NCBI GenBank assembly: GCA_963847445.1
Contig: CAWJZV010000030.1
Location: 192,001 to 256,000, forward strand
Origin: an uncultured delta proteobacterium
GTDB taxonomy: Bacteria > Desulfobacterota > Binatia > UBA9968
Length of the DNA: 64,000 nucleotides
Direction of reading: 5' to 3'
In this document: positions 3,943-63,624 of the stretch, one piece after another
Layout: every line of letters begins with the position of its first letter
Numbering within the stretch: position 1 is the stretch's first letter
Program-made: the position numbers and the translations under genes
The notes under the pieces: model-generated
Databases searched by the model: none
What the model was told of the DNA's origin: nothing
Seen by the model: the letters and a program-made list of their open reading frames with translations, nothing else

Positions 3943-4001
3943 GCTCAACGTTTGGGTGAGAGGCGCGGTCTGCCGCGACCTTCTCAACCCGATGGTTATC
4001 C
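3943..4001 (-). other. attC site of the mazEF-like cassette
   Basis: Minus strand GGATAAC ... imperfect palindrome with bulged bases ... GTTGAGC; R'' complements this cassette's GTTATCC core at 4682-4688. Confidence 0.8.
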
Positions 4002-4029: not shown

Positions 4030-4368
4030 CTAGTTCGCTATCCCCATCCAGAGTGCTAAAGCTCGGCTCACCCGCAGCACTAAATCATCCTCCAATCGTC
4101 CAATGCTCTGCGCAATGCGAGTGCGAGATACGGTTGTGACTTTGTCAATCATGAGCTGGGACAAGGAACGCAGGCCGTTGACAGGCGACGGTTCCAGAGT
4201 AAGTCGGAAGAGTGGGGCGTCCACAAGCGTACTCGTCACCGGAACAACAGTTACGCTCGCGTGCGTCTCGTTGAACAGGTCTGACTGTACAATCAGCGCG
4301 GGACGGGGCTTGCCATAGTCACCAGGTAGAGCGACTATCACAAGATCGCCGCGCTTCAACCGGTCCAC
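4030..4368 (-). CDS. mazF: PemK/MazF family toxin
   Basis: KRGDLVIV, GKPRPALIVQSD and SQLMIDKVTTV motifs. Confidence 0.9.
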   Translation of the reverse strand: MDRLKRGDLVIVALPGDYGKPRPALIVQSDLFNETHASVTVVPVTSTLVDAPLFRLTLEPSPVNGLRSLSQLMIDKVTTVSRTRIAQSIGRLEDDLVLRVSRALALWMGIAN

Positions 4369-4580
4369 CCTTCGGTATCCCGGGTCTCGTCGAGCCAGTT
4401 CAATACCTGTGCCTCAGCGCGCCGATGCTTTGACGCAGCCCGGCTTTGACGGCGGCACTCCTCAGCGAAACCTCGAGCCCTTGTATCTGGGATCCACAGC
4501 TGCACGAGTCGCAGTCCTGCACGTCTCATGCGGGTACGATAACGCTGCACGCTTCGAGCAGGCGAACTTTCCTTTTTCAT
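4356..4580 (-). CDS. MazE-like antitoxin (DUF3018 type)
   Basis: RMRRAGLRLVQLWIPDTR...FAEECRRQS; overlaps the toxin start. Confidence 0.85.
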   Translation of the reverse strand: MKKESSPARSVQRYRTRMRRAGLRLVQLWIPDTRARGFAEECRRQSRAASKHRRAEAQVLNWLDETRDTEGWTG

Positions 4581-4681: not shown

Positions 4682-4759
4682 GGATAACGCCCCGCATCAC
4701 CTGCCGACGGAAGCGGGCGAAGCCTGCTGTAGCCGGTCAGGTGCATGCGGATGTTCAAG
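4682..4759 (-). other. attC site belonging to the recombinase-transposase cassette
   Basis: Plus strand CCGCATCACCTGCCG pairs with CGG(T)CAGGTG(C)ATGCGG with two extrahelical bases; minus-strand R'' CTTGAAC and R' GTTATCC. Confidence 0.8.
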
Positions 4760-4859
4760 TAAGCCGCTGCGCGGCAGTTAATCCGTCCTGACAATCGATT
4801 CTGTCCCACACCATCGATCTTCGATAAAAGTCTCCTATCTTTTCAGAAGGAGAACGTTT

Positions 4860-5750
4860 ATGAACGATTGGTATCAACGCATGGTCGCTACTCTGCAACT
4901 CAATGGGAAAGGAGAACGAACTCAACAAGCCTACACCCGCGCGGTCCGTATGCTCTCTGAGTTCTACGGCAAAACACCGGATCTGGTCTCGGAACCCGAG
5001 CTCCAAGAATACTTCCTCCACCGAAAAAACGTCAACCGCTGGTCACCCAAGACCATGCGCATCTGTTACTGCGGAATTCGCTTCTTCTACGTCAACGTTC
5101 TCGCGCGCGATTGGCACATCCTCTCGATCCTGCGCGCTCAGAACGAACACCGCCTACCGGCCGTCCTGAGCGTCGAAGAGGTCCGAAGCATTTTGGCCCA
5201 CGTCAAAACCTTCCACAACCACGTCTATCTTTCCACCGTCTACTCCTGCGGCCTGCGCCTCCACGAAGGCCTTCATCTCGAAGTCACCGACATCGACAGC
5301 CAGCGCATGATGATCCATGTCCATCGCGGCAAGGGCGCCAAGGACCGCTATGTCCCGCTGCCTCAGTCGACTCTTCATTTGCTGCGCCAATACTGGCGCA
5401 CGCACCACCATCCCCAGTCTTCTCTTCCCAGCTCTTGGCCGCAAGCGGCACAGGCGCCAAAGCAGGCGCTCCATCCCATGGCGAAAAGCAGCGTCCAGGG
5501 CGCCTTCCGCCGTGCCAAGTGGGAGGCCGGCGTTCACAAAAAAGGCGTTTCGATCCACACCCTGCGCCATTCCTACGCCACCCATCTCCTCGAAGCTGGC
5601 GTCAACCTGCGCGTCATCCAACGCTACATGGGCCACGCTCGACTGGAAACCACCATGCTCTATCTCCACTTGACCCAGAAGGGACAAGAAGATGCCTGTC
5701 AGCTGATCAATCACGTGATGGAGGGACTCGATCATGACCTCCATCCGTGA
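4860..5750 (+). CDS. Tyrosine recombinase/integrase with N-terminal SAM-like domain
   Basis: YSCGLR, GKGAKDR, HTLRHSYATHLLE and MGHARLETTMLY catalytic motifs. Confidence 0.92.
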   Translation: MNDWYQRMVATLQLNGKGERTQQAYTRAVRMLSEFYGKTPDLVSEPELQEYFLHRKNVNRWSPKTMRICYCGIRFFYVNVLARDWHILSILRAQNEHRLPAVLSVEEVRSILAHVKTFHNHVYLSTVYSCGLRLHEGLHLEVTDIDSQRMMIHVHRGKGAKDRYVPLPQSTLHLLRQYWRTHHHPQSSLPSSWPQAAQAPKQALHPMAKSSVQGAFRRAKWEAGVHKKGVSIHTLRHSYATHLLEAGVNLRVIQRYMGHARLETTMLYLHLTQKGQEDACQLINHVMEGLDHDLHP

Positions 5751-6827
5751 AATCTTCACCACCTTCGGCCCCGAGTATCTGCAACGCTACGCGACGACCA
5801 TGCCCAAGCACCCATCGCAAAGTCATCGATGCCATCATGGCTTGTCGCACCGAGGCCTGCGGCATCGCTTTCTATCAGTGCGATGGCTGTGCTGAGCCGC
5901 AACAGTTCTTCGTTTCTTGCGGCAATCGCCATTGCCCTACCTGCCAGTACACTAAAGCTCAGCAGTGGCTCCAAACCCGGATCCAGCGCCAACTGCCGGG
6001 GCATCACTTCCTGCTCACGTTTACCGTTCCAGAACAACTGCGTTCTTTCATGCGCCAACACCAGCGCGTCGGTTACTCGGCTCTGTTCAAAGCTTCTTCC
6101 GATGCCATCAAAAAACTAGCCACCGATCCAAAGCACATCGGTGGTGATCTGCCGGGCTTCTTCGGTGTGCTGCACACCTGGGGTCGAACTCTGCAGTACC
6201 ATCCCCACATCCACTACGTCGTTTCCGGTGGCGCTATGCATTCCTCCGATGGCTCCTGGCATCCCTCCAAAATCGATTTCTTTCTGCCGGTCCAAGCGCT
6301 CTCGATCATCTTCAGGGCTAAGTTCCGCGATCTGATGAAACAAGCAAAACTGTTCGATCAAATCCCACCCGAGCTCTGGCAGATTGCCTGGAACGTCAAC
6401 TGCCAAGCGGTGGGCTCCAGTCAAGCCACGCTAAAATATCTCGCCCCTTACGTCTTCAAAGTCGCCATCTCCAACTCGCGCATCGTTGGTGCCCGCGATC
6501 GCACCGTGCTGATTCGGTATCGCAAATCTCACAGCCAGCGCTCTCGAATCCTGGCTCTTGATGTTATCGAGTTCATCCGCCGCTTCCTCCAGCACGTGCT
6601 GCCCACCGGCTTTATGAAAATCCGCTACTACGGCTTTATGAACGCGCAACTGTAAGATTGCGCTCGAACGGATTCGTGGCCTGATCGAATTGAGCTACGG
6701 CTTCGCTATCGATCTCCCCGTCCCTGAGATCGAGCCCCCTCGCCGCAGTACCTGCCCAAGTTGCGGCGGGCTGCTCAAATTCCGCTCGGTCCTGCCATCG
6801 ATGAAGATTCTGCGCCGCTCGGGCTAG
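5734..6827 (+). CDS. IS91-family (Y2 HUH) transposase with zinc-binding domain, frameshifted
   Basis: SCGNRHCPTCQ, LHTWG...HPHIH, YLAPYVFK, RFLQHVLPTGFMKIRYYG and C-terminal CPSCGG. Confidence 0.9.
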
Positions 6828-7118
6828 CCGCCCATTCCCTTCAACCAATTCTGTTGGATTTCCAAATTGTTGCCCTGCTCGCTGCGGCCTGAAGGAGGCA
6901 GACGCCGAGCTGCGCTGACTTTACCGATGGCGGAGTTCCGATTCACTCTAGCTGCGGCAAATTCGAGCAGAACAAATAAATCTAAACACTCTCTACCCTG
7001 ACCATTTTCGCCGCGCACCGCAGTTCACCATGTGATTGGACCGCCACCCCCTTCGGCGCAAATCACCGACCACAACCTTTTCCCTTATATTGTTCCTGCC
7101 CGCCTTCATCACGGGCTT

Positions 7119-7173
7119 CTTGAACACCGGATTGAAACGACTCGGAAGTCGTCTCAATCCTTACGGGTTAGGC
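7119..7173 (-). other. attC site of the EF-Tu-domain-III-like cassette
   Basis: GGATTGA(a)ACGACT/AGTCGT(c)TCAATCC palindrome; cassette ends gttaggccac and gtggcctaac are exact complements. Confidence 0.8.
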
Positions 7174-7502: not shown

Positions 7503-7545
7503 GCCTAACTATTAAGTATACTGCCGGCATTTCCGGCGGGTTATC
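7503..7545 (-). other. attI-like array start (no adjacent intI)
   Basis: Non-palindromic GTATACT-TAATA-GTTAGGC directly before the first cassette. Confidence 0.5.
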
Positions 7546-7800
7546 CAAGCGTGTAAATTGCTAAGAACAAAATCGACTGTAATATCGGTCAACAAGTCGC
7601 AGCTTGTCAATCTCTTCTCCGGGCAAACGCTGGCCGTGCGGCGGGGTATCCAGATACCAGCCCGCGGTATAGCTCGCTCGAAACCTTTCGGTCGGCCGAC
7701 AAGCACACGAATCACCGGTAACAAGCCGCGTAGTCCACTTTTCCTCAAATTCACCTCGTATCGTGCAGCTCGTCATGGTGACGTTATCCAATTGTCTCGC

Positions 7801-24801: not shown

Positions 24802-24948
24802 AATTCATGCCGTAACCGGTGACGATCACCAACGAGATTCCTGCGTGAATTGGCAAGTGGTATAAAATGTCAATGGCCTGCGTCTGCCGAATGGCGAATG
24901 CAATTCGCCCCTTATCCCTTTACGCTTTACGCCTTTGGACCATGTATT

Positions 24949-25699
24949 TTACCCGACAAAATGAAACCCGCCGTCGACGTTCAGCAACTGTCCGGTCATA
25001 AAGTCGCTCTCGCTCGACGACAAAAACAGCACGGTCCCCACTAGATCGCTTTCCACCTGGGTCTTTTTCAGGCTGCGCTGCTGGGCGCGGATCTTTTCGT
25101 ACTCGGGATCGACTTGGCGGCCTTCGGTGACGACGAAGCCAGGACTCACCGAGTTGACGCAGATGTTCCAGTCGCCCAACTCTTTCGCCATCGCCCGGGT
25201 CATGGCGATGAGCGCGCCTTTTGATGTGACGTAATGAATGTAGTTCGGATTGCCGGTGAGGGCGACGTTGGAGGAGATGTTGATGATCTTGCCGCTCTTT
25301 TGCTTCATCATGTACGGCGCTGCAGCTTTGGCGCAGAGCCAGGAGCCGCGCACGTTGACCGCCATCGCTTTGTCGAACTCCTCAACGGTCATTTCCCAGA
25401 ACGGCCCCTTCCATACGCGACATGAAATAGGCCGCGTTGTTGATCAGGATATCGACGGTGCCGAACTGCTTCACGGTTTCGCGCACCATCGCCTTCACGC
25501 TCTGCTCGTTAGACACATCGCAGGCCATGCTGATCGCCGTGCCGCCCATGTCTTTGATCGTATTAACGATCTGATCCGCACTGGCGATATCGGGCAAGCT
25601 ACAACTTCGCGCCCTTCTTTGGCAAACGCCAGCGCATACGCCTTGGCGATCTTGCCGCCGCCGCCGGTGATGATCTACGGATTTATCTTTGAAACGCAT
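24949..25699 (-). CDS. Short-chain dehydrogenase/reductase (tandem paralog 2), frameshifted
   Basis: NNAA and YVTSK motifs; highly similar to 25792..26538. Confidence 0.85.
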
Positions 25700-25713
25700 C
25701 GGAGCTCCATGAA

Positions 25714-25786
25714 GGTAAGGAGTAAGGAGTGAGGAGTGAAGAAGTTCGGATCGGAACCCCTTACTCCTTACTATTTACTCCTAACT
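25714..25786. repeat. Tandem-repeat hairpin, family C (7-nt AGGAGTA / TACTCCT units)
   Basis: GTAAGGAGTAAGGAGTGAGGAGT ... CCTTACTCCTTACTATTTACTCCT. Confidence 0.8.
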
Positions 25787-25791
25787 GTTCT

Positions 25792-26538
25792 TCATCCGAC
25801 AAAATGGGCGCCGCCGTCGACGTTGAGCAGCTGGCCGGTCATGAAGTCGCTCTCCGGCGATGACAAAAACATCACGGTGCCGACCAGATCGTTCTCGACC
25901 TGGACGCGCTTGATAGCGCGATTGGCGACGCGGCTGGCATTGAACGCCGGATCGACCGCCCGACCTTCGGTGACGACGAAACCGGGACTGACCGTGTTGA
26001 CGCAGATGTTATAGTCGCCGACTTCCTTCGCCATCGCCCGGGTCATGGCGATCAGCGCGCCTTTGGAGGTCACGTAGTGGATGTAATTCTGCCCGCCGTT
26101 GAGCGCGGTGCCGGATGAGATATTGATGATCTTGCCCTTGCCCTGCTGCTTCATGTACGGGAACGCCGCCTTGGCGCACAGCCACGAGCCGCGCACGTTG
26201 ACCGCCATCGCCTTGTCGAACTCATCGACTTCCATCTCCCAGAACGGGCTTTTCTTGACGGTCATGAAATATGCAGCGTTGTTGACCAGGACATCGACGC
26301 TGCCAAATTGTTTGGCGACGTTGTCGACCATCGCCTTGACGCTCTTTTCGTCGGAAACATCGCAGGCCATGCTGATCGCCGTGCCGCCCATGTCCTGAAT
26401 CGCTTTGACGACGTGATCGGCGCTGGCGATATCCGGTAGCGCCACTTTCGCGCCTTCTTTGGCAAATCCCATCGCATAGGCTTTGCCGATCTTGCCGCCG
26501 CCGCCCGTAATAATCACCGACTTGCCTCGAAAGCGCAT
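25792..26538 (-). CDS. Short-chain dehydrogenase/reductase (tandem paralog 1)
   Basis: TGGGGKIG, NNAA, YVTSK and NVDGG. Confidence 0.92.
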   Translation of the reverse strand: MRFRGKSVIITGGGGKIGKAYAMGFAKEGAKVALPDIASADHVVKAIQDMGGTAISMACDVSDEKSVKAMVDNVAKQFGSVDVLVNNAAYFMTVKKSPFWEMEVDEFDKAMAVNVRGSWLCAKAAFPYMKQQGKGKIINISSGTALNGGQNYIHYVTSKGALIAMTRAMAKEVGDYNICVNTVSPGFVVTEGRAVDPAFNASRVANRAIKRVQVENDLVGTVMFLSSPESDFMTGQLLNVDGGAHFVG

Positions 26539-57714: not shown

Positions 57715-57756
57715 GTTCAAAATGTTCCAGCCGTTCAAAAAGTTCAAATCGTTCGA
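57715..57756. repeat. Family A repeat arm
   Basis: GTTCAAAAT-GTTCCAGCC-GTTCAAAAA-GTTCAAATC-GTTCGA. Confidence 0.75.
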
Positions 57757-57778
57757 TCGGCGAACTCCCGATCATCTT

Positions 57779-59410: not shown

Positions 59411-59453
59411 GTTCAAACCGTTCAAATCGTTCAAGTCGTTCAAACCGTTTCAA
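59411..59453. repeat. Family A arm, 3' flank of the four-helix-bundle gene
   Basis: GTTCAAACC-GTTCAAATC-GTTCAAGTC-GTTCAAACC-GTTTCAA. Confidence 0.85.
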
Positions 59454-59462
59454 GGATCGGAT

Positions 59463-59964: not shown

Positions 59965-61535
59965 TCATTCGACCGCGCCTTGTAAGAAACCATCGCCGTC
60001 TCACCCGGTCGTAGTAGAGCCACAGCAAATCGCCGCGGCGGGTTTCGGCGTAGTAGTATTCGCGCTGGATCTCGCGGTTCCACCAGCCGCCGGCGAAGAC
60101 GTAGGGGCCGGTGAGTTTGTCGATGGTGCCGTGCTTGGGGCCCAGGACGAGCCAGCCGTCTTCGTGGCTGTGATACGGGCCGCCGGCCAAGCGCACCGGC
60201 TTATGGTTGACGCGGCGGATCAGCATATTCGGAGTGGAGAGGTTCAATCCGTTCAAATCGTTCAACCGCTTCGCGGAGCCTGCCCTGAGCGCGGTCGAAG
60301 GGTTCAAAACGTTTGTCGGAAGTTTGACTTGAGTGAGCGGCTCCCAGGTAAATCTCGCTTCGGGCAGATGGCCGTCGGTGAGCTTGGCGCAGACCACCGC
60401 GTCGTCGCCGAACTCGGCGCGCAGACGCGCCAGCGCGCGGTTGGCGGCTTCGAGGTCGCGGGTCGGTTTCTCGTTAAATAAGCGCAACTGCTCGCTGGTG
60501 GCGGCGCAGGCTTCGGCGCTGAGCTCGATTTCAATGGCGCCGGCGGCGAGCTGGAGCGACTCCAGGCGCAGACGAACTAGATCTAGAATCTGCACGGCAT
60601 CGAGTGTCGGCACGGCCGGGCGCAGCGATTCTTTGAAATAGTTTCCATGATCAACCAGCAACGATAACCAGAGCGCGACCAGCGCCTGATGGCGCGCGGC
60701 GAGGGTGGTTAACAAGGGATGGAGCAGCTGCTTGATCAAAAACAGCAGCCGGGTGCTGTCGCTCTCGGCGTCGTCGAGAATAACCGTCTGCCGCGCCGGC
60801 TCCACCGGCGCGCTCGGCGCCAGCGGCGTCCACAGATCGCCGGCGGCCATGCGGTGCAGACGATGGGCTTGCTTGCCGAAGCGCTCGCGCAGCCCGCCCG
60901 GCGGCAAGGACAACAGCGCGCCGACGGTTGTGACGCCGAGCTTGAACAGCGCATCGCGAAACTTGGGCTCGATGTTCAAACGGTTGAGCGGCACGGCGCT
61001 GGCCGCCTGCTTTTCTTCGGCAGCATCGCGAAAGATGGTGATCCCCGCTTTCGTCTTGGCGACCGCATAGCTGCCGAAGCGGCTGAAACCGACGGCGAGA
61101 TTGGCGTTAAATCCCTGAGCGGAGAGATCTTGCTGCATGGCGCTGGCCCACTGCTTTGGGCGAAGCATAGAGACGTTGCAGGCCGGCACCGTTCAACCAA
61201 AAGACGCCGGGCTCTTGCGCCGCCGGCTCGACCTCGGGAGTAAAGCGCATCAGCCGATCGGTTAAATCGCCAAGCGCCTTTTCACTCTCAGCCGGCGAAA
61301 CTTCGCCGGCGCGCAACGTCGACGCGAGGGAAAACGCCGCGGCGTAGCGCAGGCCGGGCAGCACGCCCTGCCGGCGCGCGCTTTCATTGACCCAGAGGAC
61401 CAACCCCTGCGGCTTGTCCTGCGCCACCACCGCCGCCGGATGACCGGCCCAGTCGGGATGGCGCCGGAGCAAGAGTTGCAATGGAAACGCCGGCAGATCA
61501 ACACAGGCCAGCCGGCCCGGTATAGAGCTCTTCAT
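59965..61535 (-). CDS. imuB: ImuB (inactive Y-family polymerase-like), frameshifted
   Basis: RLACVDLPAFPLQ, RFTPEVE, LARLRAEFG and GGWWNREIQREYY...LWLYYD. Confidence 0.85.
60242..60313. repeat. Family A arm with nested CCTGAGC-GTCGAAGG REP, in frame within imuB
   Basis: Matches 1891-1939 plus an internal insertion; translated as NVLNPSTALRAGSAKRLNDLNGLN. Confidence 0.82.
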
Positions 61536-62250: not shown

Positions 62251-62307
62251 ATTTAACTTTTGAGTTAACGGGCGCCGCAAGGCGTCCCGTTGAACGAATG
62301 GTTAGGC
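62251..62307 (-). other. attC site (last of the array)
   Basis: R'' GCCTAAC, AACGGG-CGCC/GGCG(T)CCCGTT palindrome, R' GTTAAAT. Confidence 0.82.
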
Positions 62308-62961: not shown

Positions 62962-63010
62962 GCCTAACGGTATGCCGCTGACCCGGAATCGGTTCGAGCG
63001 GCGGTTAGGC
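62962..63010 (-). other. Very short attC site (49 bp)
   Basis: GCCGCTGACC / GGTTCGAGCGGC palindrome between GCCTAAC and GTTAGGC. Confidence 0.78.
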
Positions 63011-63542: not shown

Positions 63543-63624
63543 GTCTAACGACAAGGCTGAGAAGCGATGGTCCGCGAGCGTTGCGAGCGGGGGCCGTACG
63601 TCTTTCTCAAGCCGCTGGTTAAGG
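63543..63624 (-). other. attC site
   Basis: GGCTGAGAAG / CTTTCTCAAGCC palindrome; R'' CCTTAAC and R' GTTAGAC. Confidence 0.8.

Follow-up and report, generated by a model that had tools for sequence, protein, structure and literature searches.

Integron arrays are usually regarded as the territory of the integron integrase IntI, with IS1111-attC elements and group IIC introns as the only intruders. The IS1111-attC elements and the group IIC-attC introns insert site-specifically and in one orientation into attC, at a point that differs from the one described below, and they are not known to bring an attC-like end of their own. IntI itself acts at the R' side of attC and exchanges bottom strands there, which gives the incoming unit the orientation opposite to that reported here, and it uses the bulged (extrahelical) bases of attC for strand choice. 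Among the insertion sequences (ISs) of the IS91 family, ISfinder lists some members with an upstream integrase gene. In this study, we analysed a window of 64,000 nucleotides from an uncultured delta proteobacterium of the Binatia (assembly GCA_963847445.1, contig CAWJZV010000030.1, positions 192,001 to 256,000), in which the gene of a tyrosine recombinase and that of an IS91-family Y2/HUH transposase lie within an attC site of a small cassette array. The stretch from 4753 to about 7166 of this window is probably a decayed IS91-family IS with an upstream recombinase, which was inserted without duplication into the R'' core of attC, the Y2 enzyme joining a single-stranded DNA circle and the recombinase assisting.

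With regard to IS91 itself, the accessible part of PMC13181058 describes a terIS end with one subterminal palindrome beside the cleavage tetranucleotide (CTCG or GTTC) and an oriIS end with one or two palindromes, two in IS91 and IS801, followed by the target tetranucleotide CTTG, GTTC or GTCC, in which T is always second. According to the same text, the target is not duplicated and TnpA alone inserts a single-stranded circle of the bottom strand, following an xTTx target rule. It further describes an open reading frame, orf121, that overlaps tnpA from upstream; the upstream gene of the window's family overlaps the transposase gene in the same manner, but it encodes a full tyrosine recombinase rather than Orf121. 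The succession of recombinase and Y2 genes is shared with ISMno24-type elements (our locus L048) and with ISShvi3 (PMC9229058). The recombinases of these upstream-integrase relatives are only 33-44% identical to that of the window; the two ISMno24-type copies, L048 and L050, have other ends and no attC-like flanks. The IS1111-attC group and the group IIC-attC introns, mentioned in PMC9229058, are likewise parasites of attC, although their enzymes (a DEDD transposase, and a ribozyme with a reverse transcriptase) are unrelated to those of the window; the window's element carries only Y2_Tnp and Phage_integrase domains and no DEDD (IS110-family) transposase. ISCR28 of the sul4 modules is an IS91-like element found in several integron classes of sludge Desulfobacterota, Myxococcota and Chloroflexota, with attC sites at its end and an integron-cassette reading offered by the authors (PMC12772301, accessible part). 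That part of the paper mentions no element-borne recombinase, and we liken ISCR28 to the window's family by description, not by sequence. These passing notes on ISShvi3 and ISCR28 are all that we found: no attC-targeting IS91 subgroup with a recombinase, and neither orientation bias nor attC mimicry, was found described in the literature, subscription literature aside.

The relatives of the window's recombinase were collected by a scan with one genome per species, and they are encoded at 34 genome loci, with several copies in some genomes. The hosts comprise metagenome-assembled genomes (MAGs) labelled as Anaerolineales, delta proteobacteria, Thermodesulfobacteriota, Burkholderiales, Rokubacteria, Pyrinomonadaceae, Gemmatimonas, Binatia and Planctomycetota, as well as the complete genome of Syntrophus buswellii. 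In the window's own genome the element is single-copy; a second copy was searched for there and none was found, and the boundaries were therefore set from the relatives. The DNA homology with L011, the closest full relative (84% identical), extends from 4753 to 7173, and in the comparison with the 34 genome loci it begins at 4753 and stops at 7171-7173. In distant relatives, the coding part is conserved and, separately, so is 7112-7173, with about 88-90% identity in many phyla. The left end, GTTCAAG-TA-AGCCGC-TnC-GCGGC-AG, is kept in nearly all loci, while all sequence 5' of it varies by locus. The right end consists of GGGCTT-CTTGAAC-hairpin-TTAyNG, and conservation ends past the next GTT. 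Three copies in one genome (L013-L015) have an identical left-end sequence and three different flanks on each side. Given these homology limits and differing flanks, the hairpin at 7119-7166 is the element's own end and 4682-4752 is host DNA. The unit measures about 2414 bp in the window, with a median of 2447 bp in 19 complete relatives.

The module had originally been predicted to occupy 4682-7125, between two complete attC sites. The observation behind this is real and both flanks do fold as attC, but the unit shared with the relatives is 4753-7173, so that the predicted interval includes host DNA on the left and misses the end of the element on the right. Folded as minus-strand DNA, 4682-4759 forms an imperfect hairpin of -18.8 kcal/mol (z -2.7) and 7119-7173 a hairpin of -12.9 kcal/mol (z -5.7), for which an equally good fold was obtained in 0 of 200 shuffles; both are bounded by xxxxAAC and GTTxxxx. 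Nevertheless, 7119-7173 combines the element's end with a host R'' box, and the supposed upstream attC is thus a chimera, in which that R'' box is fused to the terminal hairpin of the element. On the plus strand, GTTCAAG (4753-4759) and CTTGAAC (7119-7125) are exact reverse complements, as had been claimed; both belong to the element, the left copy standing beside an IS91-type palindrome. The element looks like a cassette between two attC sites because its left and right ends, together with the host GTT, imitate attC.

The two ends otherwise resemble those of the IS91 family. On the left, a tetranucleotide, 2-3 nt and a palindrome follow one another in the window (CAAG-TA-GCCGC..GCGGC, 4756-4775), in the same layout as in an IS91 copy (CGAG-TA-GGCAGC..GGCTGC) and in an IS1294-like copy (GAAC-CAC-GGCAGCC..GGCTGC). 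The reverse complements of these tetranucleotides, CTTG, CTCG and GTTC, match the kinds of site given in the accessible part of PMC13181058. On the right, the window's family reads ...ATCCTTAyNG/GTTA (the slash marks a cut or boundary), which resembles ...TTCCTATAC/GTCC in L171, an IS1294-like copy; the right ends of IS91-family plasmid copies finish with ...TTCCTAT(AC)/target. Two palindromes are present at the right end in the window (7098-7116 and 7129-7160), followed by GTTA beyond the conserved end. The position of the Y2 cut carries a 3-nt ambiguity, which stems from strand conventions and from the spacing relative to classical copies. In contrast to IS91, for which bare tetranucleotides are the targets, the window's family adjoins attC hairpins with a GTTAGGC-like 7-mer, and the 7-mers of the left end and of the inner right end of the window's element are exact complements, so that the joined ends imitate attC. 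The coordinates of the element and of the surrounding features are given in Table 1.

Table 1. Features of the element and of the interrupted cassette array (positions in the window)
Feature	Position	Strand	Remarks
Left (terIS-type) end	4753-4777	+	GTTCAAG, TA, palindrome GCCGC-TGC-GCGGC; true first base 4753-4756
Xer/IntI-like tyrosine recombinase, 296 aa	4860-5750	+	Pfam Phage_integrase 1.7e-34, Phage_int_SAM_4 3.8e-20
IS91-family Y2/HUH transposase	5734-6830	+	Pfam Y2_Tnp 7.2e-55, Zn_Tnp_IS91 8.2e-23
Right (oriIS-type) end, inner part	7082-7118	+	CCCTTATA (7082-7089), palindrome GCCCG...CGGGC (7098-7116), TT; kept in relatives
Right end, outer part ("attE")	7119-7166	+	inner box CTTGAAC, 13-bp hairpin, TTACGG tail; true last base 7166-7169
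Host attC body and R' box, cassette X	4682-4752	-	split from its own R'' by the insertion; flank varies in relatives
R'' box of the attC of cassette X	7167-7173	-	GCCTAAC; relatives diverge past GTT
Open reading frame X (ORF X), 102 aa	7181-7489	-	open reading frame; cassette whose attC was interrupted
Weak short attC-like site upstream of cassette X	7503-7546	-	GGATAAC to GTTAGGC; short hairpin, judged by eye
mazE-like antitoxin	4356-4580	-	Pfam MazE-like 1.1e-22
mazF/pemK-type toxin	4030-4368	-	Pfam PemK_toxin 8.2e-24
attC of the mazEF cassette	3943-4001	-	GGATAAC to GTTGAGC; hairpin fold

The array into which the element was inserted is small, with three to four attC sites and no integrase nearby. 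Read along the minus strand, it comprises the short attC-like site, ORF X (for which neither Pfam nor NCBIfam gave a match), GCCTAAC, the element's hairpin, the inverted element, the 78-nt attC body, mazE-mazF and a further attC, the mazEF cassette lying downstream of the interrupted site. Its boxes follow the chain rule of consecutive cassettes: on the minus strand, GTTAGGC (7509 to 7503) is complementary to GCCTAAC (7173 to 7167), and GTTATCC (4688 to 4682) is complementary to GGATAAC (4001 to 3995). If 4754-7167, or an interval of equal length displaced by no more than 3 nt, is excised, GCCTAA meets C-ATC-hairpin-GTTATCC in a single regular attC; its R'' is then the complement of the first letters of cassette X, and the mazEF cassette begins in its R'. 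The unpaired bases of the two clear attCs are more numerous on the 5' arm than on the 3' arm of the minus strand (6 versus 4 in 4682-4759, 3 versus 0 in 3943-4001), and in calibration attCs of known strand from class 1 integrons (aadA4, cmlA1 and aadA1) they likewise lie on the 5' arm of the top strand. As both cassette open reading frames are also on the minus strand, this strand is the top strand of the array. The attC of cassette X was therefore entered at its R'' core, and the element points in the direction opposite to the array, in agreement with the orientation originally predicted for its genes. Arrays were defined by the chain rule, intergenic position and conservation across loci rather than by a generic attC scan (constrained folding of every AAC...GTT pair), which found the true sites along with 2-14 candidates per 4 kb across the GC-rich window. 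The GC skew of the contig is negative throughout, a hint that the attC top strands would lie on the lagging-strand template, where single strands are exposed.

Like genuine integron cassettes, the element is bounded at the GTT/AAC core and provided with a hairpin flanked by complementary 7-mers. However, cassettes recombine at R', whereas the junctions of the element lie in R'' boxes (AA/C) on the top strand of the array; cassettes have their own attC at the downstream end, whereas the hairpin of the element is on its upstream side in the orientation of the array; and attC has bulged bases, whereas the terminal hairpin in the window has none. The unit is also 2.4 kb long and carries two mobility genes, and its recombinase, which is without the IntI insertion, stays under the cut-off. 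Several parts of the original prediction need revision. The module is not a cassette owning the downstream attC (4759 to 4682), since the hairpin that travels with it is 7119-7173; an ordinary cassette crossover does not fit junctions that lie in the host R'' core and not in R'; and the argument that transposition would leave a single attC fails, as an attC-like hairpin is part of the element. The two-gene module itself was correctly recognized, with Phage_integrase and SAM_4 domains in the recombinase and Y2_Tnp and Zn_Tnp_IS91 domains in the transposase.

The association with attC extends well beyond the window. Metagenome contigs were scanned with the 25-letter left end, which gave at least 120 stretches and, together with the genome loci, 139 left ends; of these, 8 preceded by fewer than 70 nt and 2 duplicates were set aside, which left 129 distinct flanks among the matches listed. 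An AAC-anchored hairpin with a stem of at least 10 bp lies directly upstream in 85 of these 129 flanks, versus 20.8% of 831 control GTT sites from the same loci, and with a stem of at least 12 bp the corresponding values are 79 of 129 and 15.6%. In the 79 host sites among the matches listed, the 5' box is RYYYAAC-like, the median length is 64 nt, and the A at -8 is conserved in the manner of an L box. Within these upstream host hairpins, read in the orientation of the element, the unpaired bases are in excess on the 3' arm in 56 cases and on the 5' arm in 12, with 11 equal (binomial p 6e-8). Considering this excess and the calibration attCs, the plus strand of the element continues the bottom strand of the host attC, and the element is therefore inverted relative to the array, with the junction on the R'' side. 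On the basis of these flanks, attC targeting is family-wide and mostly in one orientation, and the association of recombinase-Y2 pairs with attC that had been suggested is borne out. On the other side of the element, the 7-mer that follows the right end conforms to the consensus GTTAGGC: its GTT was required by the search, the next four letters are A in 35, G in 32, G in 31 and C in 32 of 49 right ends, and the positions after them are random.

Six host genomes, including the window's, were tested for IntI. A match over the curated cut-off was found in 4 of the 5 others, and none in the window's genome (91.8% complete) or in G002, which holds two copies of the element. The suggestion that such elements occur in integrase-less settings is thus supported by both genomes.

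Relatives were also identified on annotated plasmids. Recombinases 38-44% identical to that of the window, each followed by an IS91-family transposase, are encoded in Herpetosiphon (pHAU01), Photobacterium, Salinivibrio and two Escherichia coli IncC plasmids, and two of these more distant relatives lie inside clinical class 1 integrons. In RCS41_p, the gene pair interrupts a class 1 integron, with aadA1 on one side and qacEdelta1 on the other, and its direction is opposite to that of the array. When compared with the uninterrupted site of R100, the insertion proved to be precise and to lie in the R'' core of the attC of aadA1, with only GTT common to the junctions, nothing duplicated and nothing lost. 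In pM216_AC2, another relative is found between aac(6')-IIa and aadA4, downstream of intI1 and in the same orientation as the array; it directly follows the G/TT of an attC and ends in an attC-like site followed by TTAGGC. The Salinivibrio element faces against a run of small minus-strand open reading frames. In Photobacterium damselae pPHDD1 (L046, 1646-3118), a gene for a group II intron reverse transcriptase is situated just upstream of the recombinase-transposase pair, which makes neighbours of two types of element known from integron arrays.

The recombinase, as judged from its sequence, is a member of the tyrosine recombinase superfamily that scores below the cut-off of the IntI family and lacks the IntI-specific insertion. 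Its top NCBIfam family is TIGR02249 (integron integrase), with 174.8 bits against a cut-off of 265, followed by XerA and XerD; the score against PRK15417 is 123 (cut-off 435), and every NCBIfam cut-off is missed. The match to TIGR02249 skips model positions 180-229, and about 45 residues of IntI1 (alignment columns 201-271) are absent from 9 of the 9 element recombinases aligned. Columns R133, K161, H233, R236, H259 and Y268, which we take to be the catalytic R-K-H-R-H-Y residues of tyrosine recombinases, are invariant across relatives that are 33-83% identical. In the relatives, the recombinase gene is always linked to the transposase gene, and in four annotated ones the two overlap by 4 nt. 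A second tyrosine recombinase gene (contig positions 375252-376070, in a 363-aa open frame) occurs on the same contig about 176 kb from the element; a 57-nt stretch of it is 81% identical to the element's, and it scores 91 + 52 bits with the IntI model, below the cut-off.

The transposase scores 344.6 bits with the NCBIfam family transpos_IS91 (cut-off 125). In the window it is readable only across three frames, with the HPHIH and YLAPY motifs in the middle fragment, because two single extra bases break the gene, at about 5806 and about 6644-6646. Both are absent in L011, and in the intact relatives the transposase occupies one open frame of about 364-368 codons, by which programmed frameshifting was ruled out as the cause. 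In addition, three single-base indels at 5416-5464 put the recombinase into another reading frame than its relatives for about 14 codons. The copy in the window is most likely decayed and inactive, although some or all of the five single-base indels may be due to assembly error. Sequencing runs were compared with the window as assembled contigs; the best runs shared at most 0.36 of the sampled words, and four were used. In their contigs, the base at 5806/5807 is absent in 4 of 4 runs and that at 6646 in 3 of 4. The same contigs contain near relatives with other right flanks, which diverge past 7171/7173, and none of them bridges an empty site at the locus of the window. One contig (X6) has 13 letters past 4745 that end in GTTAGG, possibly an uninterrupted related attC, which is too short to use.

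The terminal hairpin of the window's copy comprises 13 bp with one A.C mismatch and no bulge, one extra base being present in some relatives. Compensatory changes preserve it across 49 right ends. RNAalifold, applied to a MAFFT alignment of 46 of the 49, recovered 5 pairs, 3 of them with compensatory changes, while the inner stem was misaligned; conservation of the hairpin was judged from these 5 pairs and from the raw right-end sequences. A tandem right end occurs in L026 (6230-6310), where the terminal hairpin is directly followed by a second copy of itself, beginning with GTTGAAC. In L168, the upstream flank is the reverse complement of the terminal hairpin of another copy, joined at GTTCAAG; apparently, an inverted resident copy received the element in its inner box, so that the hairpin of the element can itself be a target. 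In L030, a contig of a Rokubacteria MAG, a copy whose right end is not recognisable precedes a separate attC-like site, and about 0.8 kb further on an opposite-strand gene exceeds the cut-off of the integron integrase model. Eight further loci (L058, L079, L139, L140, L148, L161, L170 and L024) have the 25-letter left end with no transposase match within 6 kb downstream, and these ends may be solo or truncated, or may belong to elements with other content.

These features suggest the following course of events for an active copy. The Y2 transposase would nick the right end and peel the bottom strand off as a single-stranded circle, as in IS91. Within the circle, the CTTGAAC of the left end would pair with the GTTCAAG of the right end at the foot of the hairpin, giving an attC-like fold. 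The folded top strand of an attC would then be joined to the circle beside the AAC at its 5' foot, and the recombinase could help to capture or to resolve the folded sites. This role is assigned to the recombinase because its catalytic residues are complete in the relatives and because it is strictly linked to the transposase. Of the two enzymes, the Y2 transposase is appreciably the better candidate for the joining reaction, as the right end resembles the oriIS of the IS91 family, TnpA alone suffices for IS91, and the recombinase also occurs in relatives without attC flanks.

Several observations weigh against the insertion of an IS91-type element into attC by its Y2 enzyme, or limit the evidence for it. 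About one third of the flanks fail the attC-like score, some of which (L014, L035 and L043) are attC-like by eye with a degenerate AAC. The pattern used for the left ends fixed GTTCAAG; this 7-mer is found in 26 of 28 loci in a less constrained left-end alignment. A Y2 cut (AAC/) and an IntI-type cut (AA/C) differ by a single base within the shared GTT, and the junctions cannot separate them. The spacing from the left palindrome in classical copies would put the left boundary at 4756, which clashes with the rule for the right end. The target is a 7-mer, GTTAGGC, in a hairpin context, versus plain tetranucleotides for classical IS91, which could reflect either the composition of attC or recognition by the recombinase. 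The orientation in pM216_AC2 is the one that IntI-mediated insertion would give. Finally, the contigs of the four runs contain no joint between the two ends of the element, although contigs cannot show circles.

The recombinase might instead be the principal enzyme. Under one such reading, which we consider rather unlikely, the element is a self-mobilising, cassette-like unit, as originally proposed but in the corrected orientation. The recombinase would perform an IntI-like single-strand exchange at AA/C whose partners are the folded ter-ori junction and an attC top strand, likewise folded, and could later excise the element as well, the Y2 enzyme only supplying the circle. The junctions do lie in the core triplet of the integron crossover, the mobile unit does have a full attC-like hairpin bounded by complementary 7-mers, and recombination of the two attC-like sites that flank an inserted copy on one strand would restore the host attC exactly. 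The best family of the recombinase is the integron integrase, with invariant catalytic columns, its gene is never separated from that of the transposase and often overlaps it by 4 nt, and the missing IntI insertion would fit co-adaptation to a hairpin without bulges. However, the accessible part of PMC13181058 gives TnpA alone as enough for targeted insertion of single-stranded circles, and the right end resembles ordinary oriIS ends of the IS91 family. The recombinase misses every NCBIfam cut-off, and the gene pair of L048 and L050, with other ends and no attC-like flanks, indicates that it is not tied to attC targeting; attC sites are reported at the end of ISCR28 without a recombinase being mentioned in the accessible part of PMC12772301. 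A related arrangement, that of a two-enzyme integron parasite whose HUH circle folds as a mimic of attC and is exchanged with the top strand of the host attC by the IntI-like recombinase, is a possibility that we hold only tentatively.

The enzymes of the element could also be idle during attC insertion, with the element moved in trans as a passive integron cassette by a host IntI. An IntI over the cut-off in 4 of the 5 other host genomes, a correlation, and the cassette reading of ISCR28 in the accessible part of the sul4 paper (PMC12772301) would be in line with this, as would pM216_AC2, where the relative directly follows an attC in cassette orientation downstream of intI1 and has the TTAGGC of its neighbour at the far end. 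It is nonetheless improbable, given that most loci adjoin the host attC on the R'' side (56 versus 12 among the matches listed), as do the window and RCS41_p, that copies reside in two genomes without an IntI match, and that the hairpin of the window is devoid of bulged bases. Hardly credible is a chance landing of an ordinary IS91-type element, by CTTG/GTTC, inside an empty cassette, which would make the resemblance to attC coincidental. The classical IS91 targets GTTC and CTTG are present at both inner boxes (PMC13181058, accessible part) and the element is single-copy in its genome, but the outer hairpin accompanies the element in conserved form across phyla, and most of the 129 loci among the matches listed have different attC sites as their upstream flanks. 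Among left ends with at least 3 kb downstream and a transposase match, no clear copy ends in GGGCTT/CTTG without the hairpin; L030 and L101 have no recognisable right end within the 620 nt inspected.

Some further features were observed elsewhere in the window. Short arrays of 9-nt units (GTTCAAnnC) are located at 1891-2001, 57724-57765, 59411-59461 and 60242-60274, of which 1891-1923 and 1964-2001 form an inverted pair just past a gene for an ABC permease. These arrays resemble an intergenic repeat of genome-wide occurrence, and their unit shares GTTCAA with the end boxes of the element. Three attC-like hairpins (62251-62307, 62962-63010 and 63543-63624), bounded by xxxTAAC and GTTAGGC/GTTAAGG in a stretch of low GC content (0.50), may represent a second small array without an integrase at the far end of the window. 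At 24943-26515, two neighbouring copies of about 600-700 nt, about 840 nt apart and about 80% identical, are probably a tandem gene duplication.

To the known invaders of integron arrays, the finding adds a widespread IS91-type group that homes to attC in bacteria of soil, sediment and sludge belonging to many phyla. It explains to annotation pipelines why apparent cassettes may hold transposases, and it offers a concrete system in which to study how two unrelated enzyme classes recognise single-stranded hairpin sites. Since IS91 relatives are known to carry neighbouring DNA, an attC-homing member could tie rolling-circle mobilisation to cassette arrays, even to those without an integrase. If the two-enzyme parasite proved true, it would use the top strand of attC, which integron integrases avoid, and could get into and out of arrays whether or not they hold an integrase, clinical class 1 integrons among them, and perhaps take cassettes along.

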